Shown here: piece after piece, positions 8,622 to 34,650 of the stretch
How positions within the stretch are numbered: the first letter of the stretch is position 1
How the letters are laid out: each line of letters begins with the position of its first letter
Origin: an uncultured virus (IMG/VR IMGVR_UViG_3300021399_000104)
Lineage: Duplodnaviria; Heunggongvirae; Uroviricota; Caudoviricetes
Reading direction: 5' to 3' (one strand)
IMG/VR virus record: IMGVR_UViG_3300021399_000104
DNA: 52,136 bases
Notes under the pieces: generated by a model
Database searches by the model: none
Told to the model about the DNA's origin: nothing
The model's input: only the letters and a program-made list of their open reading frames with translations
Made by a program: the position numbers and the translations under genes

Positions 8622-8967
8622 AATTAAAAACGGGTCAAATCAAGTTAGTCTAAGTTTGTCTGAAAAAGTTGTAATTAATTATAAGCACGAGTTTGCCTAT
8701 TTTTTCTACCTAACAATAAGTAGATTAAATCATAATCCTGAGTTAAATCAAATTTATTTTGGCAACTTTTGGGCAAGAAAGATACATTTCACTAATATAA
8801 TAGGGATGAAATGTGTAGCAGTTGTTGGATTAGCTGGTAGAATTGAATGTAGATTACTAATGGATGAACTACTGATTGAGTATAAGACGGAGCCACATAT
8901 AATGCCAAAAAGATTTCGTCTAAATGAAATTACTCCACAAGAAAGCAGCGAAAGATCTGAACTATGA
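8563..8967 (+). CDS. Hypothetical protein, family B (copy 3; likely start MKLIHIRLGK at 8578)
   Basis: High similarity to copy 2. Confidence 0.75.
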   Translation: MKVRIMKLIHIRLGKSLGTEIKNGSNQVSLSLSEKVVINYKHEFAYFFYLTISRLNHNPELNQIYFGNFWARKIHFTNIIGMKCVAVVGLAGRIECRLLMDELLIEYKTEPHIMPKRFRLNEITPQESSERSEL

Positions 8968-13379: not shown

Positions 13380-13968
13380 CATTTCATATAAGGCATTGAA
13401 GAGAAAAAAAATAGGGAAGATTATTCATCACGAACTATCCTCCCTCTAAACAATGATTTATATAAAGTTTCTTGCAGTTAACTCATATATAAGGTATTAA
13501 GGGGGCAAAAAAAAAAAATAAAGGGACTATTCATCTCGAACCATCCCTTCCGTAAATTATAAAAATTCTTTATATAGGAATAAATACTAAATAAATAAGG
13601 GAGGACTATTCATCACGAACCATCATCTCCCTTTAAACTGGTTATAAAAGTAATTTATTGAACTCATATATAAGAAATTGAGTAGTGTTTAAGGAGAGAA
13701 AAAGACGTTTTGGAGAGGATAAAAAAATTAAAGGAGACTATCTTCACAGACGGCCTCACCTTAGAAAAAACAAAAATCCTTATCATATATAAGGCAAAGA
13801 GAAGTGTTTAAGGCGGAAGAAAAAAAATAGGGAAGATTATTCATCACGAACTATCTTTCCCCTTTACGTATGACAAGCTCGGAGGGGTTTGTTTTCCTCC
13901 ATATATAAGGCATAGAAGGGATAAAAAAGTAAGAGAAGGTTATTCATCACGAACGGCCTCCTCTTTAT
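13380..13968 (-). repeat. Tandem array of about five ORF-less promoter-motif/hairpin mini-units
   Basis: Plus-strand CATATATAAG at about 13483, 13664, 13783, 13899 (variant at about 13570) alternating with TATTCATCACGAAC-type hairpins preceded by A-runs. Confidence 0.8.
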
Positions 13969-13970
13969 CT

Positions 13971-14402
13971 TTACAATTCAATTTCGTAGGATGTAAACTC
14001 TTCCATTTTCCCAGTCTTTTTTGATTTAGCTTTAAAGGTTCGTTTATTTATTTTAACGAGTAGTGGGAAGCAAGTAGGGTCTGTTTCCTCGAGTGCTTGG
14101 ATTGATTTATTTATGCGTTTAGATGAAGAGAACATTTTATAGGTATTGCCAGTTTTGAGTTCCACTTCATCGGGGTCTTCTTCCCATTCATCGACTACAT
14201 CTTGGTCTACTTCATCTATTATCAGCAGCATTCTTTCCGCTCCGAATTTAGTTGGTATTCCTTTTATAAATCTTTTAATGATTATATATTGTCCAACCAT
14301 ATCTTCAAGTGAGACGGATTCATAGTCGAAGAATTGGTGAGTAGTTTCTTTTAGTTTCTTTTGTAGGTCTTTTCTTTGTTTGAGTGAAGTTATTTTTTCC
14401 AT
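13971..14402 (-). CDS. Hypothetical protein, last gene of the RT operon
   Basis: Coupled to 14402-14800; followed by a terminator hairpin at about 13930-13965. Confidence 0.7.
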   Translation of the reverse strand: MEKITSLKQRKDLQKKLKETTHQFFDYESVSLEDMVGQYIIIKRFIKGIPTKFGAERMLLIIDEVDQDVVDEWEEDPDEVELKTGNTYKMFSSSKRINKSIQALEETDPTCFPLLVKINKRTFKAKSKKTGKMEEFTSYEIEL

Positions 14403-14800
14403 TATTCTAGTTCTTCCTCTGGTTGTTCCGGATCTGCTTCAGTGCTTGGGTCCCATATACCTGCTTCTGTTGCCCATTGTCTAGCATCTTTAGCCATTTG
14501 TTTTGATTCATCTCTATACTCTTGCATTTCAGTAAAGGCCTGGATATAGTCAGGGTTATCTTTATCTTTGAGTATATTATTGATGATAGCTTCCATTTGG
14601 TCTTCACTATATTTGATACGTATGATTTGTGAAGTGAGGAAGCCATAGTCCATCGATCCCAGTGGTGTTACAATTTCGTCCCATTGCCAGCTTTGATCAG
14701 ATCCAGTAATATTGACATTGACCCGGTAGTATTTTCTCATTTTTTCCACTCCCCAGGTTACGAAGTCTGGTTTTGTTGTTCCAGTTTTGTGTGTTGCCAT
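14402..14800 (-). CDS. Hypothetical protein downstream of and overlapping the RT
   Basis: ORF overlaps the RT 3' end; YS.D.MEAIINN...EMQEYR pattern recalls Bacteroidetes phage tail-associated hypotheticals. Confidence 0.7.
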   Translation of the reverse strand: MATHKTGTTKPDFVTWGVEKMRKYYRVNVNITGSDQSWQWDEIVTPLGSMDYGFLTSQIIRIKYSEDQMEAIINNILKDKDNPDYIQAFTEMQEYRDESKQMAKDARQWATEAGIWDPSTEADPEQPEEELE

Positions 14801-16161
14801 AAGATATACTTCTTTAGATTATACTTATCCTTTATCAGGATTTTCTTATAGTCGTCTACCACCATACAGACGAAGTGCAGATAAGGGTATTTAGCTTTTT
14901 CAAACACTTTAGTTCTGATATTATAGGTAGCCGATTGTTTAAGTAGTCCGAGATAGGAGTTAATAGCCAGTACATATCGTCCCAAGAGTTTAAGTTCGGG
15001 TAGGATATTTCTCTGGTATCTTCTTCTTTTATTCATCTCGTTATAAATTTTCATACAGACTTGATTAGCGGCGTAGACATTATTATAAAGTCCTCCGATA
15101 GTTCGATTGCCTGTATATTGTCTTGAAGGTTTTATTACGTGTCCTAGTATTTTAATTCCTTTTCTAACTTCTTGGATATAGACTTTATCAGGGTGTAGTG
15201 TTATGCCAAGTTTTCTAGGTAACCATTCTCTAACTTCTCTGATTACTTTTTTTAGATTAGATCTTCTTGGCATAGTTATCACGAAGTCATCCATATATCG
15301 TCTATAGTATCCTCCTCCATTTCTTTTTATGAGAGTTTGTATAAAATCATCCATCACTGACAGATAGAAATTTACTAAGACAGAGTTAAGATAATCACCC
15401 ACCGACAATCCTTTTCCCGGTTCCTCTTGATTTAGGAAAGATCGACCTGGCTTTAGAACATTCCATCTAATTTTTCCCGTCCGATATATAAAATTTTCAG
15501 TCGGGTAATGATCGATGAATAGTTCGAGGAGCCAGAGTATCGTATCTTTATCATCCTTAGTGTAATAGGTTCGGATAAAGGCGATTATTAATTTTTTCAG
15601 TTTTTCTCGAGGTATAGACATGAAGCAATTAGAGATATCAAACTTACCAACCCATGCTTCTTTTGTATAATTCTCTGAGGTAACAATAATATCTGACTTT
15701 ATATCCCTTAACGCTTTGTCTGTTCCTCCTTTAGTTTTCTTCCTTTCGCAATATGATACATCTCCCTGTAATGTATATCGTTCTTCTAAGAGTGGTTTTA
15801 TTTTCTTAACTAACCAATGCTGAACTACCCTATCTCTAAACTCAGGGACAAAGACTTCTCTAGGTTTGGGCCATTCCATTATAAAAGCTTGATATTGACC
15901 CTGTGTATATGTCCTCTGGTAAACTTCATTGGCTAGTCGGAGAAGGTCAAAATCTACCATACCCCTATACATTGCACACTCCTTCTTACTCTCCTTCCTA
16001 ACACAACATAACCGATAAGCTCTAAACCATGACCTAATTTGACGTGGATCTTTAATTATATCGGAGGAGGCGGTTTTAGGATGATAAAGTGGTGGAGAAA
16101 TAGAAGGGAATGGTTTAACCGGAGGAGACACGAAAGGATTTTTATGGTAATCGTATGTCAT
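14758..16161 (-). CDS. Reverse transcriptase, DGR-type
   Basis: PREVFVPEFRDRVVQH (region 2), KFDISNCFMSI (region 3), GLSVGDYLNS..VNFYL (region 4), RYMDDF catalytic motif, LHPDK..Q...GIKILG, INSYLG; no maturase or endonuclease extension; adjacent Avd-like gene. Confidence 0.92.
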   Translation of the reverse strand: MTYDYHKNPFVSPPVKPFPSISPPLYHPKTASSDIIKDPRQIRSWFRAYRLCCVRKESKKECAMYRGMVDFDLLRLANEVYQRTYTQGQYQAFIMEWPKPREVFVPEFRDRVVQHWLVKKIKPLLEERYTLQGDVSYCERKKTKGGTDKALRDIKSDIIVTSENYTKEAWVGKFDISNCFMSIPREKLKKLIIAFIRTYYTKDDKDTILWLLELFIDHYPTENFIYRTGKIRWNVLKPGRSFLNQEEPGKGLSVGDYLNSVLVNFYLSVMDDFIQTLIKRNGGGYYRRYMDDFVITMPRRSNLKKVIREVREWLPRKLGITLHPDKVYIQEVRKGIKILGHVIKPSRQYTGNRTIGGLYNNVYAANQVCMKIYNEMNKRRRYQRNILPELKLLGRYVLAINSYLGLLKQSATYNIRTKVFEKAKYPYLHFVCMVVDDYKKILIKDKYNLKKYILWQHTKLEQQNQTS

Positions 16162-16169
16162 AATAAATC

Positions 16170-17039
16170 GAATGTGTTTGTTTTAAAAAGGGGATGAGGG
16201 AAAACATCTCAAACCAGTGTCGTTCTCACCTATTTTCACGACATTTTCCCCTTGAACGATCCCCTACCACTAATAAAATGTAGAGCGGGTTATCTTAGTG
16301 GCCAAATAACCTTCTCATAAATTTCGTCCCGCCAATATGTTAAGCCCCTAGTGAAAATCTTAACAAGGCTTGGGAAATAAGTATCATCACGACAGTTATT
16401 CCTGGGACTTAATTCGTTCTTTATGTACCAGTAAGAGTAGATAAGAATAGAAGAAGAGCATGAAAGGTCTAAATCCATTCCTACCTACTCCTACCCTGCA
16501 ATGTAATACTATCTGTTCTTTAATTAAACCCTCTCTCCGATACCAACTCTATACTTTACGATAATTACTTACCAAGACCACAAAGGGCGAAGAGTGGGAG
16601 AAGACTTAATAACAGACAAAGGAGAGATCCGATACATATAACCCCTCACAATATTACGTCTTAACTAAATACCTCATCATTGGCAACCGATAGATATCTA
16701 GTGGTACATCAATTTGTCTTAAAGATTAAAATGCATTCCTGTAACCTTAATCACATTCATAACATCGTTCATAAGTATTTTCCCTAATGAAACAATCTTT
16801 AACTTAATTCTTACTATAATCTTTAAGCTCGGTATCGCGACCAGATACCTTAATGGAGCATAAGAAAGATTAAGTTTTTGGGCATCTTTCATAAGGTGTG
16901 AGCCGAAAATTATCATGAGCTAGAGGAATAAACGCCTTGGGCCACGAAATAATGCGAATTCTGCCATTCCTAACCGTAAACATGAATCAAATCACATTCC
17001 ATAATAACTACAACACACACTATGTATTCCTGTTATTAA
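16170..17039 (-). ncRNA. Candidate structured spacer RNA between the last cassette and the RT
   Basis: No credible ORF; nested inverted repeats at 16189-16265, 16827-16859 and 16864-16890; position matches the TR-RT spacer of DGRs. Confidence 0.4.
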
Positions 17040-17826
17040 GGAACGAACCGGCCGTGCATAGTGAAGAGCATCACCAGCGTAGTAACCAGATTGCCAAATT
17101 CCAGCAGCTGAGCTAAAACGCACCACCAAGCTATATGGAGTGAGCTGTTGCGTACTAGTCCAAAAGAAAGGCAATTCACTAGGGAAGAGGGAACGAACAT
17201 ATTTCGATCGTCTACCTTCAAGACCCTGGAAGGGACCTATCTCAATCCCAACTCCCATAACATATGATTGATTATATGTCGTTGAAGAAATATGCGAGGT
17301 ATTACTCGATCCTCCACTAGGGAAGAAGTCATTTAAGGAACTGGCACTCTAATGTTAAGGAACGAATAAGCAGTCTAGTATCATAGAAAGCACCACCAGT
17401 CACACTACCAGCGACCCATAACCCACCACCCCTCGTAAAAAGGAACACCCAAACATGAGTGGAAACGGTTTGCGTAGTAGTCGAAAGGTAATCGTATCTA
17501 CTAGGGAAGATGGTGAAAGGAATTAGCACTTTGATGTTAAGGAACGAATATAACACTTGACCCAAGCTGGATTATGCATCTCTTCACCAGGATAATATAA
17601 CTCTGTAGGTGTACTAAGGCGAATAGCAACAGCCCAAGTTCCAACGCTAGTAGTACTGTATAGGTAAATATATGTACCACTAGGGAAAGCACAAACGGAA
17701 CGAATATATGCATTCTGGTGCTTGTGCCATAAGTGATACTGACCAAGATAGAGATTAGTAGACTGGTTAAGCGCAATCTGCCGTGACTCGAGCCTCGTCA
17801 CTTCCATAGAGCTACCAATTTCTCCA

Positions 17827-18279
17827 CTAGGGCTCCTCATGATATTCTTCTTTAATAACATCGGATTTAGTCTTATTAATCCATCTCTCTAGCTGTACAT
17901 CAATCTCTCCAAAGTCCTTAAGATAATCTGCATATTGAGAAGGCGTCAGAAGGTGAACTTTTTGCTTATTTGTCTTACTCCATTCAAATAAAATCCGAAT
18001 AATAGAAGAAACAAAGCATAAGTGTCCCTTTATTGATATTAGGCAGTCTAATCTTTCTTTAATGTTTTGTGTAGAATAGGCTAATTGAGAACCCACCAGA
18101 CAATCAAGTAACTCATCTGTCAATCTCGCTAGGTATTTCTCAATCATCGGTATCTTAGGAGAGTTTTCAGTCACCTTAAGAAAGAATAGAGAGATGTTTT
18201 CTAGTTTTCGTGTGATGGAAGGTGTATGTGGCTTCTGTAAGTGCCTCCCATTATTGTTTACTTTATTATTATTTTCCAT
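17827..18279 (-). CDS. avd: Avd-like accessory protein (four-helix bundle)
   Basis: 150 aa, helical; PK...LA, IIRILF...LLTPSQY...FGEIDVQLERW resembles the Avd LRL...S..QY...EIG..LGGW pattern; upstream of the RT. Confidence 0.75.
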   Translation of the reverse strand: MENNNKVNNNGRHLQKPHTPSITRKLENISLFFLKVTENSPKIPMIEKYLARLTDELLDCLVGSQLAYSTQNIKERLDCLISIKGHLCFVSSIIRILFEWSKTNKQKVHLLTPSQYADYLKDFGEIDVQLERWINKTKSDVIKEEYHEEP

Positions 18280-18303
18280 TTTGATATAAATAATTGTAAC
18301 CCT

Positions 18304-18349
18304 TTTAGTAGATAGCCAGAGAGTTTAATTTCTCCAACTATCTACTAAA
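18304..18349. promoter_or_regulatory. Inverted repeat upstream of avd
   Basis: TTTAGTAGATAG (18304-18315) / CTATCTACTAAA (18338-18349). Confidence 0.55.
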
Positions 18350-21300
18350 TTCAAAAAGTCTTGTCGTACCTTAATATTCCTTTAACTTAAAAGGAACGAA
18401 TGAGCTCTCCCATGTAAACCCAGGTCCAGTACAACCTACCTGCGTCCCATACAGAATGACCTGCTGTAAAAGCCTCACCCAAACTAGATCCATTCATACC
18501 CTGCGTACTAGTCCACCAGTATCCACCACTAGGGCATATGGAACGAACCCAACGTAAAACAAAATATTGACCCAAGCGCAGACATCCAGATTGACTAACT
18601 TGAAATGCACAACTTAAGATATCCCATTGAGTTTGAGGTGTAGCAGAGGCGTGTCCAATACTAGGGAAGATGGAACGAATAGCTTCATTGTCCCAAAAGT
18701 CCTGGGAACTCAAACGGCCTGTATGCTCTTTCCCCTGAGAAAATCCCATTGTACGTGACAAAGGATAAAGAGAATTAGTAGACGCCCAATGATATATCCA
18801 GTGTTCACTAGGGAAAACGGAACGAATATAAAAACTGCTGCGAGGATATCCAGTCCATAAGAGACCGACACTAAAAAATGCCATATGAGGACTATTACTA
18901 CACCAATGGGCACCCTGACTGGCTACACTAGGAACGAATAATCTGAGTTTCCCAAAAAGTACGCCCCGCCATCATTCCAGCAACGATTACAGTATTATAT
19001 GAGTGAAATTCCATGAGTAACGCATTAACTAAGTTCTGTTGTGTACTAGAGTGAACCAATTGTATTGCACTAGGAACGAACTGTAGATAAATTGTCAGAC
19101 TTAGGAAAACCACCAATGCTACCTGGATACTGGCTAATATGTTTGCCTTTCACAAAGTAAGCTACTTGCGGTGTAAGATAACTAAGAGACGTAGTTGACC
19201 AATGAACACCGTACTTTTCAACAATCCAAGCACTAGGGAAGAAGAGAAATGGAACGAACAAAGCGATCGGACGGATTGAGTGGATATATAGTAGCTCCTG
19301 GGTCGCTAATGGCCTGTCCCTCTACCCATCTATGATAAAACACTACAGTCCATTGAGCCCGAACAGCGTAAGGTGTAGAAGAAGTATGTCCATTAACACT
19401 AGGAAAGCACGGAGGGAACGAACTGAGTAATAAGTAAACGCCTGCGAGTTAACTAAGCTGCCAGGATATTGTAGAATCAGATGGCCCTTCATAAAGAAAA
19501 TTAGCCGTGGATAATTAGCAATATGAGGCACAGCTGACCAATGAGCACCCACGTTATCACCTACCCAACCACTAGGAACGAACAGAGTAAACATGTCCGA
19601 CAACATCAGAAGCCCACCTACCAGCGAGATAGATACCTTCAGATGACAGAAAACGTACAATTGAACTCTGACTGGCATCGCGGGTCATACTAGTCCAACC
19701 TACACTAGGGAAGAAGATCCATCTAGTTCATTGTATAAAGAAAATGTCTCATGAAGATGACAAAAACATCGTAATTCCCTGTCTTTTTCTAACATTTTGA
19801 CATACTTTTGAACGAACTCCTCTAGAACCTTCTGGGATTGGCGTATGTGCACTACCCGGATATTCGTTGTATTTAAGCTGACGAGACCTAAAGTTAACTG
19901 CTCGAGCACCAAAACCATTAGCATCTGTAATAGACCAGTGAATAGTAGAACTATCACTAGGGGAACGAATAATGTGTTTATCCTGTCCACTTGCAACTGT
20001 CAGCCTACCAGATATCCAAATTCCAGCATCTAATGAGAAAGGCACTGCCCAACTATAAGAACTACCTCCCGCACTCGTACTCGTCCTGGTATATCCTCCA
20101 CTAGGTAAGGTATAGAACGAATGGGTAAAGAATATGAGAGGTGGAGGAGTAATCCTGCAGAATATCCTGGAAGCTCCTGATTATTATTTCCAGTACCAAA
20201 CATAGTCCATCGTGAATAACTTCCATGTTCAGCAGCAGTCGTAGAAGACCAATGCAAGGTTTGACTAGCGGCTTGGACTCCACTAGGGAACGAACATATC
20301 GACGGGCATAGACAGAGACATCAGTAGCAAAACCAGAACCCAAATCTCCAGCACCTAAAAACAAACGCATCACCCAACTAAACCATCCACCCGCTTGCGT
20401 ACTTGTCCAATAGGCTAATCCACTAGGGGATATAAACGGAACGAATATACCAACCTATGTGAAATGGACTATAACTACATTCACCATTTCTTTGAATCAT
20501 TCCCAAGCCTGCTCTTCTAGCATAAACGCTACTATGTTGTGTACTAGACCAAAACCAGCGATCTCCACTAGGGAAATACAACAGGAACGAAAAGGATGTG
20601 AAGCAGAAACAGAATCTCTATAAATCATGCCGTTACCTTTATATACCTCAGCAAGAGTAGATGGTAGAAAGGATACTGCAATATTAGCATAGTAATAAGT
20701 CGAACAATAGATATGCAGCCCTTTGGCACTAGGGAAATATGGAACGAACTGAGTGACTTGAAAAATATTGAAATAAGCCTACAAGACCGGTTCTATCTGA
20801 ATTTCCTTCCCACCAAATTCCTAATGCATAAGTAAGCGAATACATTGTAGTAGACACGAACCTTACCCATCCACCACAAGGGAAGAGGGAACGAATGCCT
20901 CGAGTACCTCCGGATGATGCAAACTGCACACCTGGATATTCATTGTATGGCAAATTTATCGCTCTGAAATTACAAGATCGAGGAGAGTTACTGTTACCTT
21001 CAGTAGCAGAATAATGGATAGAAGGTAAGCCACTAGGGGAACGAATATAAAGAGTTGCACTTAAGTTAGCTGCCGAAGTCGTCACACCAGAAATCCATTT
21101 ATCTGAACCTCCCCAAGCAAATAACATCACTAAAACACTAGGTTCGTATGCCCGCTGTGTACTACCCCAAAGATATGCACTAGGGAATATAAACGGAACG
21201 AATATTGCGTATATAAATGTGGCTTTGATGTGCAACTTCTCCCACAAAATAAGTGGACGATCCTGTAAATCGTACCTGCCAAGAAGACATAGTAATGCAC

Positions 21301-24300
21301 TCTGTAGAAGAGAAATGCTTCTCACCAGCAGATATTCCACTAGAAAATAAGACTAACGGAACGAATAGATGTACTGTCTGGATCAAGATACTTTGCCCTA
21401 ATGTTATGACCTCCGGGATATTGGCCAACTTGAGGGTTTCTCCGACTAAACCAAAAGGCAATTAGTTGGCCGTCAGTACACTCAGTTGTTGACGACTGAG
21501 GAAGAGTCTGCCAAGTACTAGGGAAGGAGGAACGAATAGTAACAGAGTCAAAATATCTTGCGCTTGAGCTAATAGATCCATAATAATGCCCCGGTTGGTC
21601 AGCGTAACCAAACCAGCAGAGACGGACGCGGAGGTCATTTTCTCCTGTTGCTGACCATTGCCTAGTACGCATACTGTATCCACTAGGAAAAGCACAAACG
21701 GAACGAACTGAGAATTCGTGAAATATTCTGGCTGAAGAGCAAATACCAAATGATAATAGTGGATCTGATGCATATCCTACTACTATGCGTAAAGCGTAAT
21801 TGCTCGAGGTCTGAGAACCGGACCAAACTCCACTAGGGAACGAATAGAATTTGCATGATATTTGTTTCTACGTTCATTGAATCCCCCCGGACAATAATAT
21901 ATCATTTTCATGCCGTGTGATATTCCCCCAGGATGCTTGGGAAGTGGCCTCTGTTGATGACCAAGAACGATCATAGTTAGAGGCAACTCCACTAGGGAAT
22001 ACAAACGGAACGAATATATGCATTCGCGCGTGGGTCGTCTTTTTGCCGAGCGGTTAACGCACCGTAATATTGCTCAATAATGTCTCCCTGAGTAATCCAA
22101 ACGCGACGTGCACCCCCTAGGCCGATTTCCGTTGTAGACCACAAACAATGTTTTCCACTAGGAAAAGCACAAACGGAACGAACTTCATGAGTCACGTTAG
22201 TTAAATCCTGTATAATGTAACCAGAAATATGCAGAGCACTACTATATTTACTGAAATTCACCATTCTGGCACCAGTTCCTATGTGACCTGTAGCACACCA
22301 ATAGTTTTGCCAACTTATTGCACTAGGAAACGAAGATTATGAGATGAACTAGTACTATTGAAGTAATTAGTGAAGTTACCTGCGCCTAATCCTTGACCAA
22401 AAACAAATGCAAAAGGAACATAGCTTAGGCTCCAATTTCCTATCATATATAGACTGCTATGCCAATGATATACAGCTCCTCCACTAGGGAACGGAACGAA
22501 ACTAGAAGGTAACACAGGGCCTAACTCTATATTCGAGGCAGGCATGAGGATAAGTATCTCTCGACCCGTCACGCCAGCACCATGCGTATTTCCAAGTACC
22601 ATTTCTCGGTAAAACACATGTAGAGGCCCAATGTTGACCGGCCAAACCTTGTTCCCATGTTCCTCCTACACTAGGAATAATGGAACGAATAGAGTGCGTA
22701 TTAGCAGCATCTTGGCGATGTACATAGCCGGGTTGCCACTCACCTGTGTTATGACTGCCTCCCACACGTATTGTAAAGAGGAGATAACTAACTAAAAAAT
22801 CAACAGACGTCCAGTGATAAGGCGTTCCACTAGTCAGGAACGAATAGAATAGCCTGGGTAGTATTTTGATGCAGCAATTTGTACATGTCCAGGATATTCG
22901 GTTTTTAATGTAGCCCGTCCAAATCATTGAACATAAAAGGCATTCGAATGGTGCTCTGTAGTACAAGATTCCGTAGCGAGATATGATTGTCCACTAGGAA
23001 AGCACTAATAGAACGAATAAGATAATAATCTGTCCCGTTTCGTCGTGCGATAAACCCTGAATAGTTATGATCCTGGATGTTCGAACCATAAAATGCAAGA
23101 TGTAAATGAACTTGACCGGTGCACTCTGCAGAAGAGGTATGCGACGCCCCACTAGGGAACGAATAATACTTCTTTTAGAAACGTGTCGGCCGATGAATAA
23201 GCCCCGATATTGATCCGAAGTATAGTATATAGTTGTAGATAATTCCCAGGCACGTTGAGAAGTTGACCAGTGAATTGTGTACTCTCCTTGTCCTCCACTA
23301 GGAAAAGTGGAACGAACAGTTACAGCGTTTAATTCGTTGAGGAGACGGCTGCGTACATATCCAGGATATTGTAAGGCTGTACCAGCATAGCCAAACCATA
23401 CAACAAAATATTGATTCCAACTGATCTGCGTAGAACAAGATTCTGTTGCTCGATCCCAATTTCCACTAGTCAGGAACGAATAGAAAAGGCTGCATTTGCC
23501 TCTTTATGCGCTACCTGAGTAAACCTCCCCGGTGTCTGAACTACGACAGAACCATAAAAATTAAATATAGCCCAAATATACAGATGATTATCTTCAGTAC
23601 TACCTAAAAAGTAAGGACCTGGAAAACCACTAGGGACGGAACGAATAGAGTTTCCAAAATGTTTGCTTCTACGTTGAATATATCCCCAAGATAATATTGC
23701 ATCATCATCGGGCCTTGCCACAATCGCATGGAAGCTTATCAGACCGGCCTCTGTAGACGACTGAGCAAGTGCAAAGTATATGTGAGTTCCACTATGGATC
23801 AAGCGGAACGAATTGTAACATTACCGAATTTGTATGGAATGCCATTTAAATTGCCTTCGCGCCATGACCATTGACGTGCATAATACGCATTTATCTCAGT
23901 AGCAGACCAGTAAAAGTATACCATATGTCTTACACTAGGAACGAATAAAGTTTCCGAAGTGTTTGTTTCTACGCTCATTGAATCCCGAATACAGTGTTAC
24001 TGAATCACCGTGTCGTATGATATTCGCCCAGAAGGTTAGGTAATTGGCTTCTGTAGATGAATGAGTAAGAGTATAGTTATTGACCGCTCCACTAGAAAAT
24101 ACTACTAATGGAACGAACAAGGTAAACATGTCCGACAACATCAGCAGCCCATCTGCCTGCAATATATATGTCATTACCCGATACAAAACGGACAATAGAA
24201 CTAAGGTGAGGATTCCAACCCGTACTGGACCAATGGCTATTTGACCCACTAGAGGATAATGGAACGGATAGGCAAGGTCCAAGGCCATTAGAATTTTAAA

Positions 24301-25297
24301 AATATCCGACCAACCCAATCGAGTCCTCCATTATACTCGAATCCAACTGCACAAGCTTCGATAGTAGACCATAACCGAATGTTTCCACTAGGGAACGAAT
24401 CCAATGCTGAATATCATGAACCTTACTTGATGTCGTCCAGTAACCATATGATGATAGAGGAACGGACCCATATCCTACCATTATCATGCTAAACGCTGCC
24501 GATCCTGCCTCAGTAACGGAGACAACTCTAGCAAAGTTCTGAGCCTGTCCACTATGGAAGATGGTGACGATCAATCACGACATTACCGGTATAGCACATA
24601 CCTGTATCCCATATACCTGCTCCCTGCGAAAGTATCACCTCCCAACTACGAGTAGAACCGAACTGTAGGCTTGTCCAAAAGTATGCACTAGGGAACGAAT
24701 AGAATGTGGATCTGATACTATTCTTCCAGACAACACTCCCGGGGAACTGCTTAAGTCAAACGCCAGCATAAAACAATAAGGAGCAAAGAAAATAGTGCTG
24801 ACCCAAGACCAAGACGAATATCCACTAGAGAACATAAACGGAACGAACCAAACGTAGATTAAAAAAGTATTTACTAGTTGGAGTGTAGAAACCATATGAT
24901 TCTTCTGGAAAAGACCCATATCCTACCATTATCATCCAATAGCTACGATCCGCCGCTTCTGTAGCAGACATCGCCCTAGCATGGTTCTGATCTCCACTAG
25001 GACATACGGAACGAATGTGGTGAATATTATCATGAACACCAGCACCTGCCCATCTACCGGAACCCCATACCTCATGCCAGGGTGCAAACTGTACCACCAC
25101 ACCTTGAGTATATAGGGACGGCATACTACTCCAAAGGTATCCACTAGGGAACGAATATTATGCGAATCTGATGCTACTCGTTCAGATATACCTCCTTGAT
25201 TAGCAAAGGGAGAAAACACTAGTCTAATACGATAGTGACTATGATATTCAGTACTGCTCCAGAAAATATACAAGTATCCACTAGTGGGGTATATTTG

Positions 25298-25363
25298 TGG
25301 AATATCAGGAATCGAACCTGAACTTAAGAATACATCTTCGTGCTACCATTACACCATATTCCT
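25298..25363 (-). tRNA. tRNA-like element with shortened anticodon arm (pseudo-tRNA) inside the cassette array
   Basis: Minus strand AGGAATA-TG-GTGT AATGGTA GCAC-G-AAGATGTATTCTT-AAGT-TCAGG TTCGATT CCTGA-TATTCCA: canonical D and T arms, 6-bp acceptor pairing, anticodon arm 13 nt instead of 17. Confidence 0.7.
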
Positions 25364-26312
25364 AGAGATTTATTAGATCTCTATATCAATTAAGCAAGGG
25401 AACTCAAACCGCCTGTCTTTAAAGCCAGTCGGGTTCCCTTGAAAGAAGTCGTCGAGATGATCAAACATCTCTCCTCAAGAAACGTCGGTCCTAATCGTCC
25501 CTCCTTAAGGAGTGCTTAGAAAGCACAAACGGAACGAATAATGTGACTATCATTCCAGAAATTACCAGCAGTACAGTATCCAGCAGCCCTAGAATCACCC
25601 GCCGTAAAATGCGTTACCCAACTATGAGTAGGTAAGTGTTGCATACCTGTCCAAAGATATCGTCCTGATCCACTAGAAGAACGAATAAGACGGAAAGCAG
25701 AATTGTGTTGTTGTGCTGTAGCTCCTGGACTAAGAGTGAGAGTGTCAGAAGCGGACGCCTTATAAAACGCTACATACCAACGAGTCTGTCCCGCCCACTG
25801 TGTAGAAGAATCCTGCGATAAACCACTAGGGATGGAACGAATATAGCGCCGAGTATCATAAGCTTTGAGTCCATAATCAGCCAATCCCCAATCACGTATA
25901 TTGTCACTTTGTGTTGATATCACAAAGTAGAGTTGATGATAACACTCTGTAGATGACCGAACAAGAGCTGACATAGAGGTATCTCCACTAGGGAAGACGA
26001 ACGAATATAACGATTTACATAATGATATGAATGAGCCATGCTACCGGTTGGTGCTGAATCTTTCCCAAATTTAAAACCAATTGAGATCAGAAGCAGAGAT
26101 ACTTCTACAGCAGCTATATGAATTCCTGATCCACCACTAGGGAACGAATAGAATTATATCCTACACATCTTGATTCCACAGAGATTAAAAGACCAGTTGA
26201 GTAGGTGGAGGATATATAACCAAATAATAACGCCAAATCATGAAGAATATCACGTTGCGTAGAAGAATGGGATGCATCATCGTACCAAACCGCTCCACTA
26301 GGGAAGATAAAG

Positions 26313-26354
26313 AAAAATAAGAAGAGGCAGGGTTATTACTCTCTACCTCCTCTT
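26313..26354 (-). terminator. Intrinsic terminator between the Ig-like gene and the array
   Basis: Minus strand AAGAGGAGGTAGAGAG...CCTGCCTCTTCTT followed by ATTTTT. Confidence 0.65.
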
Positions 26355-26369
26355 ACAATATATAAACTT

Positions 26370-28007
26370 TTAGACAGGCATAACTTCAAACACGCCCTCT
26401 TCTACCTCAACAGACTTATATCCATCAGCAACAAAGCTAACTGGACCACCGACCTCACTCATTGAATTAGCTGGGTCGAAGCCATAATACTTTCCGCCAT
26501 AGACAGTAATATTAGCAGTTCCAGCCGTATAAGAGGAATCATAGCAGTTAAGGAGATATTTCTTTTCCTCTCCTGTCAGTTTAAACTCACCCCCGTAAAT
26601 ATTAATCTGGCCATTTTCACAGTAAATAGCGTGAGTACTAGCCGTCCATTTACCACCCATTACATTCACTACACTACTCTTATTAGATAGCCATAGACCA
26701 TAGTAATCAGAGTTAGTATATTCGCCCGTTCCTTTAATGGTTAGGTTAAGTGCAGAGCCACGTACAAAGAACATACCATTTTTCGCTCCACTAAACTCTA
26801 TATTATGTTCTCCTAGGTTCCATTCATAGTTACCTGAAGCGAAAAGGCCAAAAGTAAGTGTGGCAGTTGCATTAATATTAGCGTCAAGGTTAGTTATGCC
26901 GGGTTGTAGAGCATAAGATTTAAATTGACTCCAAGTACTAGCGTTCATTATATTAGGTGAAACTGTGTACTCTGTGTCATTTACTACCTCATCAATTCTA
27001 TTCTCAACTTTAGTATCCTTCACAACTACATTGCCCTTCTTGACAATAAGCTTCTTAATGTGTGCTGCCGGACCAACATTGAGGGTATTATCTCCAACAG
27101 TGCTTTCAACTACGTTCCAAGATGAATTAAGTGTTACTGTTGAATTAGGTGTATTGATATTTAGAGAAGGCTCATTAGTATTCCCATTTGATATAGTAAC
27201 ATTCTTATTGGTTTCACTATTAACGTTACTAGACTCTGAGAAAACACCATTAACCGTTACATTCTTTCCGACTTCGCCATTAATATTAATGTCACTAACT
27301 TCTCCCTCACTAACTTTAATAGATGTGTTTGTGTTGACGTTGTTATATAGGCCTGTCAAATACACCGTAGAAACACTGGGAGCATCAACAGTGAGATTAG
27401 AAGGTGAAGTTGAGGTGTTATTTACATACACTAATTTACTACCACTTGCTTCAACCGTTGCATCACTAGATAATGGTGCCGTGATTTTACTAGTCTTTGT
27501 TACACTAGAGGGGATAGAAATTGTACCTACTTCACCTTCTGTTATGACGACTTCTCCACCACCTTTTTCTGTTAGCTCATTTACGATAGTCTCTTCATTC
27601 TCTTCTTTCTGAGCTTCATTACCATTTTCACAGACGGTAATATCTAGGGTTGCAATAATTCCAGATGTAGAAGTAGCAGTGATGGTGGCTTGTCCTATGT
27701 TTTTACCAACTAAGAGACCATCATTTTGTACTTCTAGAATTGAACTATCCGAACTCTCCCAGATTACCTCCGGAACATTAGCAATAACAGGGCTAGGAGT
27801 GATGGTTAGGCGGGACTCTTCATTAATAGATAGGTAATGTTTTCCTGATAAAGTAATTTCGACAGCGGCATGTTCATCGCCATCATAAATTTCTTGATCT
27901 GACTTAAACTCTACACTATCTTTAATCGCCTTTTGTTGTGGAATAGAATGATAGCCGGAAGTTACATAGATTGAATCAACGCCGTTATCAAAGTATTCAG
28001 CTGACAT
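26370..28007 (-). CDS. Ig-like (Big_2-type) domain protein with a C-terminal beta-helix-like region; probable virion or surface protein
   Basis: V.WESSD.SI.EV..DG.LVG...GQATITAT Big_2 signature; repeated 'INIYGGEF/ITVYGGKY' beta-strand motifs. Confidence 0.75.
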   Translation of the reverse strand: MSAEYFDNGVDSIYVTSGYHSIPQQKAIKDSVEFKSDQEIYDGDEHAAVEITLSGKHYLSINEESRLTITPSPVIANVPEVIWESSDSSILEVQNDGLLVGKNIGQATITATSTSGIIATLDITVCENGNEAQKEENEETIVNELTEKGGGEVVITEGEVGTISIPSSVTKTSKITAPLSSDATVEASGSKLVYVNNTSTSPSNLTVDAPSVSTVYLTGLYNNVNTNTSIKVSEGEVSDININGEVGKNVTVNGVFSESSNVNSETNKNVTISNGNTNEPSLNINTPNSTVTLNSSWNVVESTVGDNTLNVGPAAHIKKLIVKKGNVVVKDTKVENRIDEVVNDTEYTVSPNIMNASTWSQFKSYALQPGITNLDANINATATLTFGLFASGNYEWNLGEHNIEFSGAKNGMFFVRGSALNLTIKGTGEYTNSDYYGLWLSNKSSVVNVMGGKWTASTHAIYCENGQINIYGGEFKLTGEEKKYLLNCYDSSYTAGTANITVYGGKYYGFDPANSMSEVGGPVSFVADGYKSVEVEEGVFEVMPV

Positions 28008-28423: not shown

Positions 28424-28690
28424 AGTTTATTCAAAATTAAAAAAGATTAATGCTAGAAAATCATCTCATTTCTAACATTTTAATTTTACTCCATCATTTA
28501 TAAGAAATCAAGTACCATCCTAAGCGCGTTTTGTTTATTTCGAAAGAAGAAAAAAAATGAGGGGACTATCTATCACAGACTGTCCCTCTCCCATGGTTAA
28601 ATTGATTAAATCTAGAAACAATTTTTGCAAATCATCCATATATAAGGAAAAGAAAGGAGACTAGACTTTTACATCTAATCTCTTTATCCT

Positions 28691-29140: not shown

Positions 29141-29412
29141 TTATATAGTTTGTTTATTGTTATTAATTTTTTACGTTTCTAAATATAAGATTTATATTGT
29201 ACTCCATACATAAGTCTTTGTTTATTCAACTCTGTCTTATGTACTTCGCGGGCATTTAGTTCGCATCTTTAGTGCTTGCAGCTCGTCTCACTGACCACGT
29301 AGAGGTATCCCGATCTTCAGTGAGGTCTTCATATATAAGAAATAGAAGGGCTGGTAATTATAAAAAAACACCAAGGATTTTTACGTCCTCAGTGTTTAAA
29401 TTATTATCTACA

Positions 29413-31629
29413 TTACATAGTAGTTGTTGTTACCTTATCTTTCTGTATTAACTTTGTGAGAATTTTTCCTAAGAGTGATGGTAAATTTCCAATATCACCC
29501 TTAATATCAATCACGTTATCAAACATATCCTCTGCTCCTTCCACAGTATCAATACATACCTGAATAACTTCCATATCCATAGTATTTTGGACTTTTTTGA
29601 CATTGCTTCTAACATCTCTGATAGCTGACATGCCATAATATCCTTCAGCTGCGGGTTCTCCATCAGACAGAACAATCATGATACAATGGTTTTGAGTAAA
29701 TTTTCTCACTCGTTTTGCTGTTTCATAGATTGCTGTTCCATCTCTATTTTGACATCGACCTGTAATATGAGTTAAGGAATCTGTGTTTTGTTTTCCACGT
29801 CCTCCTTCTCGATACTTATAGATTGTTGTAGTACCAGTTCCACCAAAAGACCTAAGATCTCCGGTGTGACCATAAATATACAAGTCAATTCCTGGACAAT
29901 CCTTAAAAGCTTCGTTCAATAAGATAGCACCTTGTCTAGCTAAATATGCTTTATTGCAACTATAACTATACATACTATCAGAACGTCCCATTGATCCACT
30001 TTCGTCTACTAAAACACAGATAGTAGTTTTATTTGTTTTTACTTCTCCTTTTCTGATATAGACTTGTGGAACACCTTGATATGCTTCCGCTAGTTTATTC
30101 TCATCCAGTTTTCCACTCCGACAACCATATATAGAGAATTCATAGTTTTTATCTATATTATTTACAAGTTTTCGAATGGACGGTATTAATGGTGAAATAT
30201 CTTTAGCTAGTTTTATGTATTTAGCTCTATCAGTATCGGATTTTTCTGCCGTAAAATAGGTCTTAGAACTTTCTCCTTTCTCGACAATACCAGAAAACAA
30301 GCCTTCAAATAAGTCTCCATGCGCATTAACATCATGTGAGGCAACATTAGCTCTAGTTGCTCCAACACGTTTAGACCTTCCAAAATTAGTGCTTAGTCTA
30401 GAATATAAGCTTCCATCACTACCAATTACAACATCTTTAGTAATAGAATTGATGGCGCTGTCTAAAATACTTTCAAATATTCTCTGAAATTCACTATCAT
30501 CTGATTTAAGCTTAAGCGTTATATCTTTGTAGTCTCTTTTAATTGATTTATAGATACTAATAGCTTTCTTACAAACATCAGCAGTAGTTTGTGGTAGAGG
30601 AGTCATTATCTTTTTAATCTCAGCGAATGATTTGTGATAGGTTTTTTCAACTGTTTCGTCAATTTCATCAGGATATCGAATTAGCCTGAATAGATTAATA
30701 AGATAATCTTTAAGTTCTATTTCTCTTTCATTTGTTATTTTTATTCCAGAAATCTCATCAACAAACTTCTTATACAGATATTGTTTAGATTTAGAAATAA
30801 AATCCAAAAATCCAGGACGAGTAGTTAATAACAGATCTTCTACTCTTTCATCCTCAATCATATTAAAGATTAAGAGTATTAGATTTCTGATATGACCTCG
30901 CTCCTCCCCTGAATATATATCTTTCTTATCATCTCGGTCTCCATCTTCTCTATCTACAGCTTTAAGATGGGAACTAATATTTCTTTCAAAATTAGTTATT
31001 ACCTTTAGATTTGTGTGTAGTAGATGAGCAGTTTCATGCAATCCTAAGCCACAGAAGATGGATATTTTATCTTCCTTTGTTTTAGCTTTATCATCCATAT
31101 AGCTGGTCGGAATAAATATGACTCTATCTACACGACCTTCTCTAAATGGACAAACCTCAGAACAGTATAAAGTACCGAGTTGTCCTTTAATTCCAACACT
31201 CTCAGATTTCTCTTCACCATCAGATTCGTATGCATTGATCTTAATACCAACAGAAAAGGGTAAATCCAGCACCACAATCATATCCCTTGCTGATCTATAG
31301 GCCGACATGATTACTTGCTCTGTCGCACCTAAAGTTGAAGTATATCCCCAGCTTTTACTTGTTGATGTAAATACGCTGGATCTATTATCAAAGAAATCAT
31401 CATACCCACCACAATATTCATTATAGTAAGATCCATGATAGGAAGGATATGAGGTAGTTTTGTCTTTATCTTTGTCCTTATCTTTTTTAGCTGGTATCGA
31501 ATAGCCGTAATAACGATGTGGGGAGGAAAAAGCGGATCTATATTTTGCATTTCTAATAGATGAACTTTTCCACCATTTATCCCAATCGAATGCTTTTTTA
31601 TTTTCTTCCAGTCTTTCTTCCCAATCCAT
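29413..31629 (-). CDS. vWA domain protein (CobT/NorD-like MoxR partner) with HExxH motif
   Basis: VLVDESGSMG MIDAS motif, IVLSDGEP, GLHETAH, N.IEDERVE. Confidence 0.85.
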   Translation of the reverse strand: MDWEERLEENKKAFDWDKWWKSSSIRNAKYRSAFSSPHRYYGYSIPAKKDKDKDKDKTTSYPSYHGSYYNEYCGGYDDFFDNRSSVFTSTSKSWGYTSTLGATEQVIMSAYRSARDMIVVLDLPFSVGIKINAYESDGEEKSESVGIKGQLGTLYCSEVCPFREGRVDRVIFIPTSYMDDKAKTKEDKISIFCGLGLHETAHLLHTNLKVITNFERNISSHLKAVDREDGDRDDKKDIYSGEERGHIRNLILLIFNMIEDERVEDLLLTTRPGFLDFISKSKQYLYKKFVDEISGIKITNEREIELKDYLINLFRLIRYPDEIDETVEKTYHKSFAEIKKIMTPLPQTTADVCKKAISIYKSIKRDYKDITLKLKSDDSEFQRIFESILDSAINSITKDVVIGSDGSLYSRLSTNFGRSKRVGATRANVASHDVNAHGDLFEGLFSGIVEKGESSKTYFTAEKSDTDRAKYIKLAKDISPLIPSIRKLVNNIDKNYEFSIYGCRSGKLDENKLAEAYQGVPQVYIRKGEVKTNKTTICVLVDESGSMGRSDSMYSYSCNKAYLARQGAILLNEAFKDCPGIDLYIYGHTGDLRSFGGTGTTTIYKYREGGRGKQNTDSLTHITGRCQNRDGTAIYETAKRVRKFTQNHCIMIVLSDGEPAAEGYYGMSAIRDVRSNVKKVQNTMDMEVIQVCIDTVEGAEDMFDNVIDIKGDIGNLPSLLGKILTKLIQKDKVTTTTM

Positions 31630-31634
31630 ATAGT

Positions 31635-32828
31635 TTAATAAGATGCTATTGTTTTGTAGATAATACTTCTTTCTCCCGTTGATTTAGAGCCTTCATATAG
31701 TGGCGCAAAGATTTTAGTGATAGAACTTCCAACATTCCATCCATCTTTGACTAATTCAGCTACATACAAAGTCTCACGAATAGATACAGAGGTTGATATT
31801 TCTTGTTTTTCAGCCAAAGAACGAACAGTGTTAGCTATCTTTACAATCGTTTTAGCTTGATCACTGGTAATTTGAGTTCTATGCATCAAGACTTTTTCCT
31901 CTTGATTCGACGGTATATAGTTCAACTCAATAGGGAAGAATCTATTAACCAAAGCTCTATCCATACTCTGTGTTCCTGTATATTCGGATCCAACATTTGC
32001 GGTAGCTATAAACGTTACCTCTGGATGTACATTAATTTCACGTACACTCTTAGATCCAGCCACTTCAATAGATAATTTTCTTCTATCATCGAGACAAGGG
32101 AACAGAATATTATTGGATGCGTAAGATGCTCGAGAAAGTTCATCAAGCAAAATTACACATGGTTCCTGAATAGCCTGGGTGAAGTTAGCATAATCAAATA
32201 CACTCTTTCCATCCTCCAATCTATGAACGCCTAAAAGAGATGAAATAGGATCAATAATAGAACCCATATCGAAGACGTGCAATTTGACGCCAAGTTTCTC
32301 ACAGGCAAGTTTAATTAAGGAGGTTTTACCAGTACCAGTCGGGCCAATAATCATAGTATTAATGTGCTTCTTAATATTTCTCAGAAGCAATGTCCAATTC
32401 TCTTTCTCTACAAAAAATCCTTCTTTGTTGGGAGTAGGCATATCAATCTTAGCCATTTCATCAAAGAAGGTTGGCTCCTTTATTTCTTCCTTTACCTCTT
32501 CTTTTGTTGTTTCCTCAGTCGTTGATTCCTCTTTTGGTATTGCTGCCATAAGCTTCTCGTATTCTGCTCTGACGACGGGACTTGACATCTTATCTGTTAA
32601 ATTAAGATAATAAATATTTCCTGCCTTATAATGTGTTTTACCAATCGAATAAAGGGAGTAAGAAAAGAAGATAGATCCGATGGGCTTAGAATCACGAACA
32701 CTCTTACTGCATGATACTCTAAGTTTTGGATTAATCTCTTCTCCACTTCCTAAAAACTTCTGACCTGGTAAAGGATAAACTTTCGTTTCTTTTTTCTCTG
32801 TAACGGTTTTGAAAAAATAATAACTCAT
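31635..32828 (-). CDS. MoxR/CbbQ/NirQ-family AAA+ ATPase
   Basis: GPTGTGKT Walker A, ILLDELSR Walker B, FIATAN, DRALVNRF. Confidence 0.9.
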   Translation of the reverse strand: MSYYFFKTVTEKKETKVYPLPGQKFLGSGEEINPKLRVSCSKSVRDSKPIGSIFFSYSLYSIGKTHYKAGNIYYLNLTDKMSSPVVRAEYEKLMAAIPKEESTTEETTKEEVKEEIKEPTFFDEMAKIDMPTPNKEGFFVEKENWTLLLRNIKKHINTMIIGPTGTGKTSLIKLACEKLGVKLHVFDMGSIIDPISSLLGVHRLEDGKSVFDYANFTQAIQEPCVILLDELSRASYASNNILFPCLDDRRKLSIEVAGSKSVREINVHPEVTFIATANVGSEYTGTQSMDRALVNRFFPIELNYIPSNQEEKVLMHRTQITSDQAKTIVKIANTVRSLAEKQEISTSVSIRETLYVAELVKDGWNVGSSITKIFAPLYEGSKSTGERSIIYKTIASY

Positions 32829-34143: not shown

Positions 34144-34189
34144 CAGACATTTATTTTCGTCTTCAGGATCTAGTTAAACAATAATTTCT

Positions 34190-34650
34190 CTATCATATAT
34201 AAGGAATTGATTGGTATTTTAGGCGGAAAAAATAAAAAGGAGGACTATCTATCACAGACCGTCCCCTGAAAAGAACAAATGAAAAAATATAAAATGAGAT
34301 TCATATATAAGGAAAATAAAGAGGGAATATTCATCCCTCTCCTTTTGCTTAATTCAATTCAATTCTTTCTTTCTTGGCAGGTATAAAGATGTTCATTTTC
34401 ACTCTGCCACTTTTTCTCGTGTTGTAACTTTTCGGATCAATTCTTACAATCCGTTCGCTTTTTAAAAATTTTGCCATTTTCTTTTATTTGATTAAACATT
34501 CATTCATATATAAGGAATTCAAGGGTTATAAAAAAAAAATAAAAAGGGGGACTATCTATCACAGACTGTCCCTCCTCAGGAAAAAACCAACATGTTTATT
34601 CGTATATAAGGAAAAGAAAAGAAGGAGATTATATTTTCCCCTTCTTTAGT
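34190..34650 (-). repeat. Promoter-motif/hairpin mini-units (two ORF-less, one containing a 42-aa ORF)
   Basis: CATATATAAGG at about 34193, 34301, 34503 and variant 34600; CTATCTATCACAGAC hairpins at about 34245 and 34552. Confidence 0.75.
34349..34477 (-). CDS. Small basic protein (42 aa, MAKFLKSERIVRIDPK...), not in the ORF track
   Basis: Hand translation; has its own promoter motif (34503) and terminator (about 34318-34341). Confidence 0.55.
   Translation of the reverse strand: MAKFLKSERIVRIDPKSYNTRKSGRVKMNIFIPAKKERIELN

Follow-up and report, generated by a model that had tools for sequence, protein, structure and literature searches.

The uncultured virus record IMGVR_UViG_3300021399_000104 of IMG/VR (Caudoviricetes) comprises 52,136 nucleotides (nt), and this whole stretch is called the window in the following. 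Its minus strand carries, between positions 17040 and 26301, an array of 54 short, start-less coding units, the cassettes, next to a gene for a reverse transcriptase (RT) of the diversity-generating retroelement (DGR) clade, and a gene for an accessory variability determinant (Avd) lies inside the array (Table 1). DGRs create variants of a binding site in which about a dozen codons of a single, otherwise constant scaffold are randomised. In its gene content the window resembles part of a phage genome, with many small open reading frames (ORFs), long minus-strand structural genes, pairs of genes for MoxR-type ATPases and VWA-domain proteins, an RNase H gene and matches to PHROG families. Because a 330,285-bp contig on record contains ORFs of the array, the phage is a jumbo phage of at least 330 kb, and the sequencing runs in which the window sequence was found are labelled as gut metagenomes. 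A search of a phage collection gave no near match to the window DNA, and all matches to the RT in it were below 60% identity.

An array of singly open coding units with frozen anchors

The units are bordered by the anchor CCTAGTGG (Pro-Ser-Gly) at the 5' side and by (A/G)TTCGTTCC (Ile/Val-Arg-Ser) at the 3' side. All 26 minus-strand copies of CCTAGTGG and all 46 of TTCGTTCC fall within 17040-26400, and neither sequence occurs on the plus strand. Units were parsed by pairing each start anchor with the next end anchor and their length was counted from AGT to TCC, which gave coding lengths of 111-180 nt with a median of 144 nt; for unit 24691-24556, which has no clear 3' anchor, the end was placed by hand. 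When the frame is fixed by the anchors (C CT AGT GGx ... ATT CGT TCC), the length is divisible by three in 52 of the 54 units and the interior is free of stops in 50, with five stops in total, whereas the remaining five frames hold only 0-13 stop-free units and 85-189 stops. Mononucleotide shuffles (n = 2000) gave a mean of 4.0 stop-free units (standard deviation 1.9, maximum 11). Third codon positions of the units are 46% T, and the other minus-strand genes of the phage range from 26 to 58%.

Of the 53 gaps between adjoining units, three long ones and the junction after unit 24691 were set aside, and the phases of the remaining 49 true junctions (1-40 nt) are evenly spread (17:15:17, chi-square p 0.92). 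Together with the intact interiors, this indicates that the units are kept open singly and that the joining of one unit to the next is unconstrained, and the largest ORF within the array does not exceed 203 amino acids (aa). An earlier description of this DNA, made from the letters alone (the sequence-only reading), had claimed that the start-less units are almost all open in one frame while the linkers shift the frame, and both the comparison with the shuffled null and the junction phases bear this out. It had also held that the units are not decaying debris, and this agrees with frame breaks that are almost confined to the junctions. In particular, the array could be imagined as the decaying gene of a single long protein built from tandem repeats, each about 50 residues in length, given that a full linker joins two units in frame (IRS-VCAF-PSG), that 17 of the 49 junctions are in phase and that ORFs covering two to four units reach 203 aa. 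However, frame breaks are concentrated in the junctions, which total about 400 nt and of which 32 of 49 are out of phase, while about 7100 nt of interiors contain two phase errors and five stops, and neutral decay would have spread such breaks evenly. As 17 in-phase junctions out of 49 is the chance level and each unit covers only the C-terminal part of a domain (see below), this explanation seems to us highly improbable. The program TRF finds nothing in the array.

The anchors are also conserved at sites at which the encoded protein would not be affected. The arginine of the 3' anchor is encoded by CGT in 52 of the 54 units and its serine by TCC in 46, although these codons make up 27% of the arginine and 7% of the serine codons of the interiors; likewise, the serine of the 5' anchor is AGT in 53 units, compared with 23% of interior serine codons. 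Such freezing at synonymous sites points to a signal that may be read as DNA or RNA.

The junctions resemble nested internal deletions of one ancestral linker, GTTTGTGCTTTTCCCT, which is shortened to GTTTTCCCT, GTTCCCT, GTCCCT or CT. Since the full-length junction GTTTGTGCTTTTCCT reads in frame as VCAFP, the ancestral unit ended in IRSVCAF, like the VRPCAAF of a distant protein described below (P0019). Two long junctions in 17359-17548 of the minus strand, 38 and 40 nt in length and located behind units 17683 and 17504, are similar to each other (TTAACAT.A.AGTGC.A.TTCC...). The loose end at 25676 of a contig from an RNA library is similar to them, so this type of junction is also present in variant arrays.

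The units fall into four sub-arrays, A to D. Sub-arrays A and B are separated by 248 nt with a tRNA-like element, B and C by 102 nt, and C and D by the 150-aa ORF of avd. The anticodon loop of the tRNA-like element is about two bases short and ARAGORN calls no tRNA there; the protein variants P0028 and P0029 suggest that related genomes lack this A/B gap or have a different one. Downstream of the last unit in each of sub-arrays A, C and D there is an inverted repeat (z -1.9, -0.4 and -2.7, respectively), which is not the case for the inner units. Recipient sites of DGRs carry an IMH directly after the variable region (VR) and need a hairpin there (PMC3240598). Scans for sigma-70 promoters and for terminators performed no better on the window than on shuffled sequence.

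Table 1. Features of the array locus and its surroundings (positions in the window).
Feature	Position	Strand	Evidence and remarks
Non-coding stretch, 878 nt (about 880)	16162..17039	-	From the last unit to the RT gene; candidate structured RNA
Reverse transcriptase, DGR clade, 467 aa	14758..16161	-	Pfam RVT_1 1.2e-14; phrog_1423 3.9e-51
Sub-array D	17040..17830	-	5 units, at the template-repeat position of canonical relatives
avd (accessory variability determinant), 150 aa	17827..18279	-	Inside the array, at the avd position of relatives
Sub-array C	18393..19708	-	9 units; last ends IRSF-stop, then inverted repeat TTCCTTT...AAAGGAA
Sub-array B	19809..25284	-	35 units; all four broken units and the one lacking a clear 3' anchor belong here
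tRNA-like element	25297..25363	-	Rfam tRNA 43.4 bits (gathering score 29); in the A/B gap
Sub-array A	25531..26301	-	5 units; last ends IRSVCAF-stop, then palindrome CTCCTTAAGGAG
Hairpin and T-run after the 545-aa gene, then half-linker ATCTTCC into the first unit	26305..26369	-	DNA fold -6.6 kcal/mol, z -1.8
Structural protein with Big_2 domain, 545 aa	26370..28007	-	Pfam Big_2 2.1e-05; PHROG 'structural protein with Ig domain'

The units resemble the variable part of DGR target proteins

The 49 intact complete units can be aligned to the consensus SG....W.ST[EQ]......F......G.........[IV]RS. Neither single units nor the unit profile gave a match in Pfam or PDB sequence searches. An exhaustive profile search of 1.84 billion representative proteins returned 23 matches, mostly ORFs of the array itself or of its variants; the others were three distant proteins, P0019, P0021 and P0023 (E-values 2.7e-04 to 7.9e-04), and false positives. 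P0019 and P0021 match the Pfam family Lcl_C (PF07603, the former DUF1566), and the match of P0019 lies within the last 40 positions of the model. When the unit profile was compared with the C-termini of proteins targeted by related DGRs using hhalign, a probability of 93.9% and an E-value of 1.5e-07 were obtained, and columns 6-48 of the unit aligned with columns 91-126 of the 133 template columns, that is, with the VR-bearing part only. The targets of the DGR relatives end in ...PSNSWYWSASEY...YLVRPVAAFRL*, and the units read PSG..W.ST[EQ]...[IV]RS(VCAF); the same layout is seen in the target of relative L107, which ends in ...KPSNSWYWSASEYSAYSSWSINPVSGQVHNLSSKSDSYLVRPVAAFRL, and in those of the L109 group (...RWTSTQS...VVLPVFAC). 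The best reading of these alignments is that each unit would encode a variant of the final 37-60 residues of a domain of the Lcl_C/DUF1566 type with a C-type lectin fold. This is the portion of phage receptor-binding proteins in which canonical DGRs introduce hypermutation. One unit folded alone gave a low-confidence three-stranded sheet (predicted local distance difference test, pLDDT, 70; predicted template-modelling score 0.38), which is compatible with a part-domain but is no proof of it. VRs of the DUF1566/Fib_succ_major type make up 14% of DGR targets and are often found behind Big_2 domains, according to PMC5758913.

The partial nature of the units also bears on whether they are translated where they lie, which could yield many short proteins, each of one to four units, or involve programmed frameshifts. 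ORFs of 66-203 aa have been called within the array and are on record in protein databases, and contigs from an RNA library touch the array; these contigs are no more than a hint of transcription, because DNA can be present in such libraries. However, the called ORFs start at arbitrary points within units and often in another frame, the GTG within the anchor is out of frame, in-phase junctions are at chance level and a unit lacks the N-terminal half of its domain. We therefore attach very little probability to translation in place.

Divergence between units and turnover of whole units

The two stretches that the sequence-only reading had quoted as differing at synonymous sites are real and are the 3' ends of units 19708-19575 and 24252-24110. 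Between these units, the proportions of synonymous and nonsynonymous differences are 0.55 (pS) and 0.26 (pN), corresponding to a ratio of nonsynonymous to synonymous rates (dN/dS) of 0.32. Among the best eight unit pairs, seven give dN/dS values of 0.32-0.83 at dS 0.7-1.3 and the eighth is saturated at synonymous sites. For the claim of purifying selection at the protein level these ratios are rough, because such dS values are near saturation.

Short blocks of identity are shared between otherwise dissimilar units: two pairs contain perfectly identical blocks of 23 nt inside units that are 62-68% identical, and four pairs share at least 14 nt, where 0.2 would be expected. The blocks look as they might after segmental conversion.

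A second array with the same anchors was found on a short metagenome contig (L168), in which all 10 complete units are intact, compared with 0.43 (maximum 4) in 2000 shuffles; this brings the intact units over both arrays to 60 of 64. None of its units matches a unit of the window, the sole similarity being one stretch at 72% identity. This contig came from a scan of metagenome contigs for the anchors, which otherwise returned four contigs identical to the window, and scans of viral and genome contigs gave single chance matches only. Six of the chance matches to the anchor pattern (L208, L214, L222, L223, L229 and L236, all from one Saprospiraceae metagenome-assembled genome) belong to a palindromic intergenic repeat, TTCGTTCCCGAGGCACTAGTGCGTCAGGAAC..., which is unrelated to the array.

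Related genomes differ by whole units. In the protein P0017, a relative of unit 23795 (59% identity) is joined directly to a relative of unit 23155 (89%), so that the three units which lie between them in the window are skipped, and a unit that is absent from the window is added thereafter. Unit 25676 has different neighbours in P0010 and in P0002, P0029 and P0030. The copy on the 330,285-bp contig (P0028) reads IRSLVV in place of the IRSVCAF-stop of the window. Divergence is patchy: in P0005, all 10 differences fall in the tail of the linker and in one unit, and the unit before it is identical over 47 residues.

DGR enzymes and a conserved non-coding stretch

Eight relatives of the RT were found in IMG/VR (32-37% identity), and the seven that were analysed (L107 and L109-L114; L108 was left out as a duplicate of L107) all lie in canonical DGRs. 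Their layout is a VR of 95-109 nt, about 600 nt with avd and a template repeat (TR) just before the RT gene, and the mismatches between the repeats fall at adenines of the TR, in 8/8 to 12/12 cases in six of the loci and in 15/18 in L112. No cassette array was found beside the loci of these relatives. In the window, sub-array C occupies the VR position, directly before avd.

The 150-aa ORF in the array is Avd, an assignment that rests on its position, on an alignment to the ORF at the Avd position of L107 (blastp, E-value 3e-06), on its sole NCBIfam match, DivGenRetAVD (NF033474; full length but weak, E-value 0.06), and on its predicted fold. The model is a bundle of four helices (pLDDT 84) whose best Foldseek matches are the Bordetella DGR Avd structures 8ub7_E and 4dwl_B (target template-modelling scores 0.78-0.82, E-values 0.018-0.03). 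The stop codon of avd is the TAG within the CCTAGTGG anchor of the next unit. An Avd relative, P0043, was not found in the scan of viral contigs.

The 878-nt stretch between the last unit and the RT gene is more stable as a folded RNA than each of 20 shuffled versions (z -3.83), and it contains neither a match to an Rfam family nor a TR-like sequence. Contigs of an independent sequencing run (X5) differ from the window by 5 letters over 16226-17047 and by 62 letters over 14085-16166, the piece with the RT gene. Parts of the array that X5 does not cover, and joints with short sides (20-25 letters, the level of the anchors), were not used as evidence. In the RNA library of the likely source sample, one contig extends over 16072-17104 and others lie on parts of the array and on the gene of the 545-aa protein.

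In view of these enzymes, the array might be a bank of ordinary template repeats, in which each unit serves as the TR of its own remote VR somewhere in the 330-kb genome and is subject to adenine mutagenesis. Template repeats are likewise start-less and constrained at the protein level, five units lie at the TR position of the relatives, between avd and the RT gene, and remote targets have been described for other DGRs (PMC5758913). However, the units contain only 0-7 AAY codons each and are depleted of A at codon positions 1 and 2 (0.26 and 0.25; other genes have 0.32-0.38 and 0.27-0.40), whereas known TRs show the reverse. Furthermore, no long proteins with unit-like ends were found, even though ORFs of the 330-kb contig are in the databases searched, and only a single Sp-like stretch lies before the RT gene. 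A bank of this kind is therefore improbable.

A possible silent library of variable-region cassettes

Canonical template repeats are start-less and yet constrained at the protein level, since they are copied into an expressed gene. Because the DGR enzymes adjoin the array, the units match the variable regions of DGR targets and canonical template repeats share these two properties, a donor or template role for the units is a natural one. We consider that there is about an even chance that the array is a silent library of 54 variable-region cassettes which serves a DGR-derived system of a jumbo gut phage.

According to this proposal, the cassettes would be silent in place and not translated where they lie, and one cassette at a time would be copied into the 3' end of an expressed receptor-binding gene, the acceptor, which is located outside the window or is still unrecognised. 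The copied piece would be delimited by the anchors CCTAGTGG and (A/G)TTCGTTCC, of which the 3' one sits at the codons V/I-R-S/P, at which the VR/TR homology of the relatives ends. In the route that we somewhat prefer, the array is transcribed and RT and Avd, together with the conserved 880-nt RNA, might produce a complementary DNA (cDNA) of one cassette, which would then replace the resident segment. Alternatively, and only slightly less probably, the exchange could take place by plain homologous recombination at the anchors.

One might go further and speculate that the phage possesses a cassette DGR, in which the random adenine mutagenesis of one template has been given up for more than 50 stored, pre-tested templates, any one of which RT and Avd could write into the receptor-binding tip, with the conserved 880-nt RNA and the frozen TTCGTTCC anchor as guides. 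In such a system new cassettes might also be written back into the array, and this would explain both the turnover of whole units and the ragged junctions. If true, it would mean that a virus chooses between alternative binding sites by way of RNA and in the manner of V genes, but we regard this extended version as rather unlikely. Pairing of the 3' anchor with the 880-nt RNA, for which an 8-nt complement (GAACGAAT) is present near position 16419, was rejected as evidence, because the duplex energy was matched in 11% of control windows and in 7% of shuffles.

Several other observations also count against a silent library that serves a DGR-derived system. Four of the 54 units are broken, by one stop each in 24391, 22997 and 22674 and by a 1-nt insertion in a G run in 21995. 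A repeat search and an all-against-all comparison of the units revealed no TR/VR repeat pair in the window, and a window-wide scan for AAY codons no AAY-rich stretch. The best unit pair is 68% identical and its mismatches are of all kinds, not adenine-specific, many of the columns that are conserved in a three-unit family are A, and the dN/dS ratios are rough, as mentioned above. The RT keeps the YMDD motif, but its signature site reads VGDYLNS (residues GLSVGDYLNSVLVNFYLS), so that SQ is replaced by NS; at this site, IGN(L/I)(P/T)SQ is found in all four full-length relatives that were aligned (L107, L109, L110 and L112). The DGR RT signature is [I/V/L]GxxxSQ, and a role in adenine mutagenesis is ascribed to its first residue in PMC7826257.

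An acceptor gene was sought in the window using motif scans, Pfam searches of 59 ORFs and a blastp comparison of 432 six-frame ORFs with Lcl_C domains. No gene that ends in PSG...IRS or contains an Lcl_C N-terminal half was found; these searches matched only the C-terminal parts of the units themselves. The 1.84 billion representative proteins did not include a long protein with a unit-like C-terminus, and a word-index search of longer proteins gave six matches, all of them ORFs of the array. Both protein searches include ORFs of the 330,285-bp contig, but these negative results are only moderately telling, because the score of one unit by itself is close to the limit for reporting. Nor was any transfer event, chimeric read or cDNA observed. 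The 545-aa Big_2 protein, whose gene lies directly upstream of the array, was considered as the acceptor and rejected in its present form, as it ends in ...EVMPV* and has no Lcl_C-like part. The proposal of the sequence-only reading that the units are silent donors, selected when expressed in a target, is partly supported by the DGR context, the match to variable regions and the frozen anchors, but for its core, expression after transfer, neither an acceptor in the window or the protein searches nor a transfer event was found.

According to the main rival explanation, the array is a by-product or fossil record, in which former VRs or copies of them were piled up by faulty retrohoming, template jumping or unequal recombination. 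Having come from an expressed gene, such copies would have been intact at birth and would now be useless, and fast turnover would hide their decay. This accounts well for junctions that look like nested linker deletions, as they would after imprecise joining, for the broken units and the differences by whole units between the arrays of close relatives, and for the lack of an acceptor and the altered RT motif. However, about half of the synonymous sites differ between the closest paralogues, without adenine specificity, so that the units must be old or derived from many different genes, and 60 of 64 are nevertheless intact. In addition, idle copies would have no need of anchors that are frozen at synonymous sites, as they are in almost every unit, and a second sample shows the RT, avd and the 880-nt stretch to be conserved and intact. 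A fossil record thus explains the ragged junctions and the missing acceptor, but not the frozen anchors or the intact units, and we judge it unlikely, if less so than the rival explanations discussed above. Even as a graveyard of old variable regions, the array would be a rare readable record of past states of a DGR.

Other features of the window

RNase H is common in large phages; an RNase H gene (41330-41818, minus strand, Pfam 5.2e-12) lies about 25 kb from the RT gene and could serve cDNA metabolism. Two separate pairs of a MoxR/AAA_5 ATPase gene followed by a gene for a VWA-domain protein are present on the minus strand (29413-32828 and 45041-49052), and an 820-aa VWA protein has a long Gln/Gly/Ser-rich middle part of low complexity, in which TRF reports 46204-46448. 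Families of intergenic repeats of 40-60 nt occur at 13399-13966, 28544-28588, 29328-29368 and 34176-34578, none of them inside the array. They consist of an A-run with an inverted repeat such as GGGAAGAT...ATCCTCCC and of a CATATATAAGG box, and on the minus strand they read as a hairpin with a T-run; they are likely shared terminators and promoters of the phage. The depth of the DNA runs rises several-fold at such spots. In a block of plus-strand genes, tandem paralogous small ORFs are present at 1-1300 and 8269-8923, with a period of about 373-398 nt and copies that are 69-82% identical, and no family match was found for them.

Comparison with known systems

The locus shares with canonical phage DGRs, such as that of Bordetella phage BPP-1 and those of the seven relatives analysed here, an RT of the DGR clade, an Avd of the same fold and the order of variable segments, avd, template position and RT on one strand, and in both cases the segments code for the variable C-terminal portion of a lectin-fold domain of the DUF1566/Lcl_C type. 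In contrast to these systems, it has no TR/VR pair and no adenine-specific mismatches, its segments lack the rest of the target gene, 878 nt separate the last segment from the RT gene (about 50 nt in L109) and the SQ of the RT is changed to NS. Furthermore, one template and one to a few targets in canonical DGRs stand against 54 unlike segments here; the largest number of DGR targets cited in PMC5758913 is eight target genes in tandem.

The array is also reminiscent of the donor sites of Borrelia vls, Neisseria pilS and Treponema tprK, which are bacterial, are located near a known expression site and act through host recombination. As in these systems, promoter-less and start-less partial copies are arranged head to tail, are open and diverse, and have short conserved borders, and repertoires that differ between strains and signs of segmental exchange are found in both. 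The differences are that the present array belongs to a phage, that RT and Avd adjoin it and that no expression site with a full-length gene was found in the window or in protein databases.

Short conserved elements alternate with unique segments in CRISPR arrays as well. However, the array has anchors of 8 + 8 nt with a gap of 1-40 nt rather than one repeat of 28-37 nt, and its unique parts, 111-180 nt in length, are coding, in phase and homologous to each other, so that we agree with the sequence-only reading that the units are not CRISPR-like. A search for cas genes among the 59 ORFs scanned gave none. Similar to integron arrays, the cassettes are promoter-less and lie in one orientation, but they are gene fragments of one family instead of whole genes and have no attC-like inverted repeats. 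No integrase is encoded by the 59 ORFs.

A search of full-text literature, with supplements outside its scope, returned no report on a cassette array in a DGR or on phages that vary through silent cassettes. We know of no antigenic-variation cassette system or V-segment-like repertoire that has been described for any phage. The cassette mechanism would be categorically new only if transfer were shown. If the cassettes are indeed used, 54 scaffolds that differ in sequence and loop length would provide a second layer of diversification beside the DGR enzymes, and a jumbo gut phage would be seen to alter its host-binding specificity beyond point mutagenesis. This raises the question of whether an RT of the DGR type could use many templates and dispense with adenine mutagenesis, and the anchors would be natural handles with which cassette exchange could be engineered.

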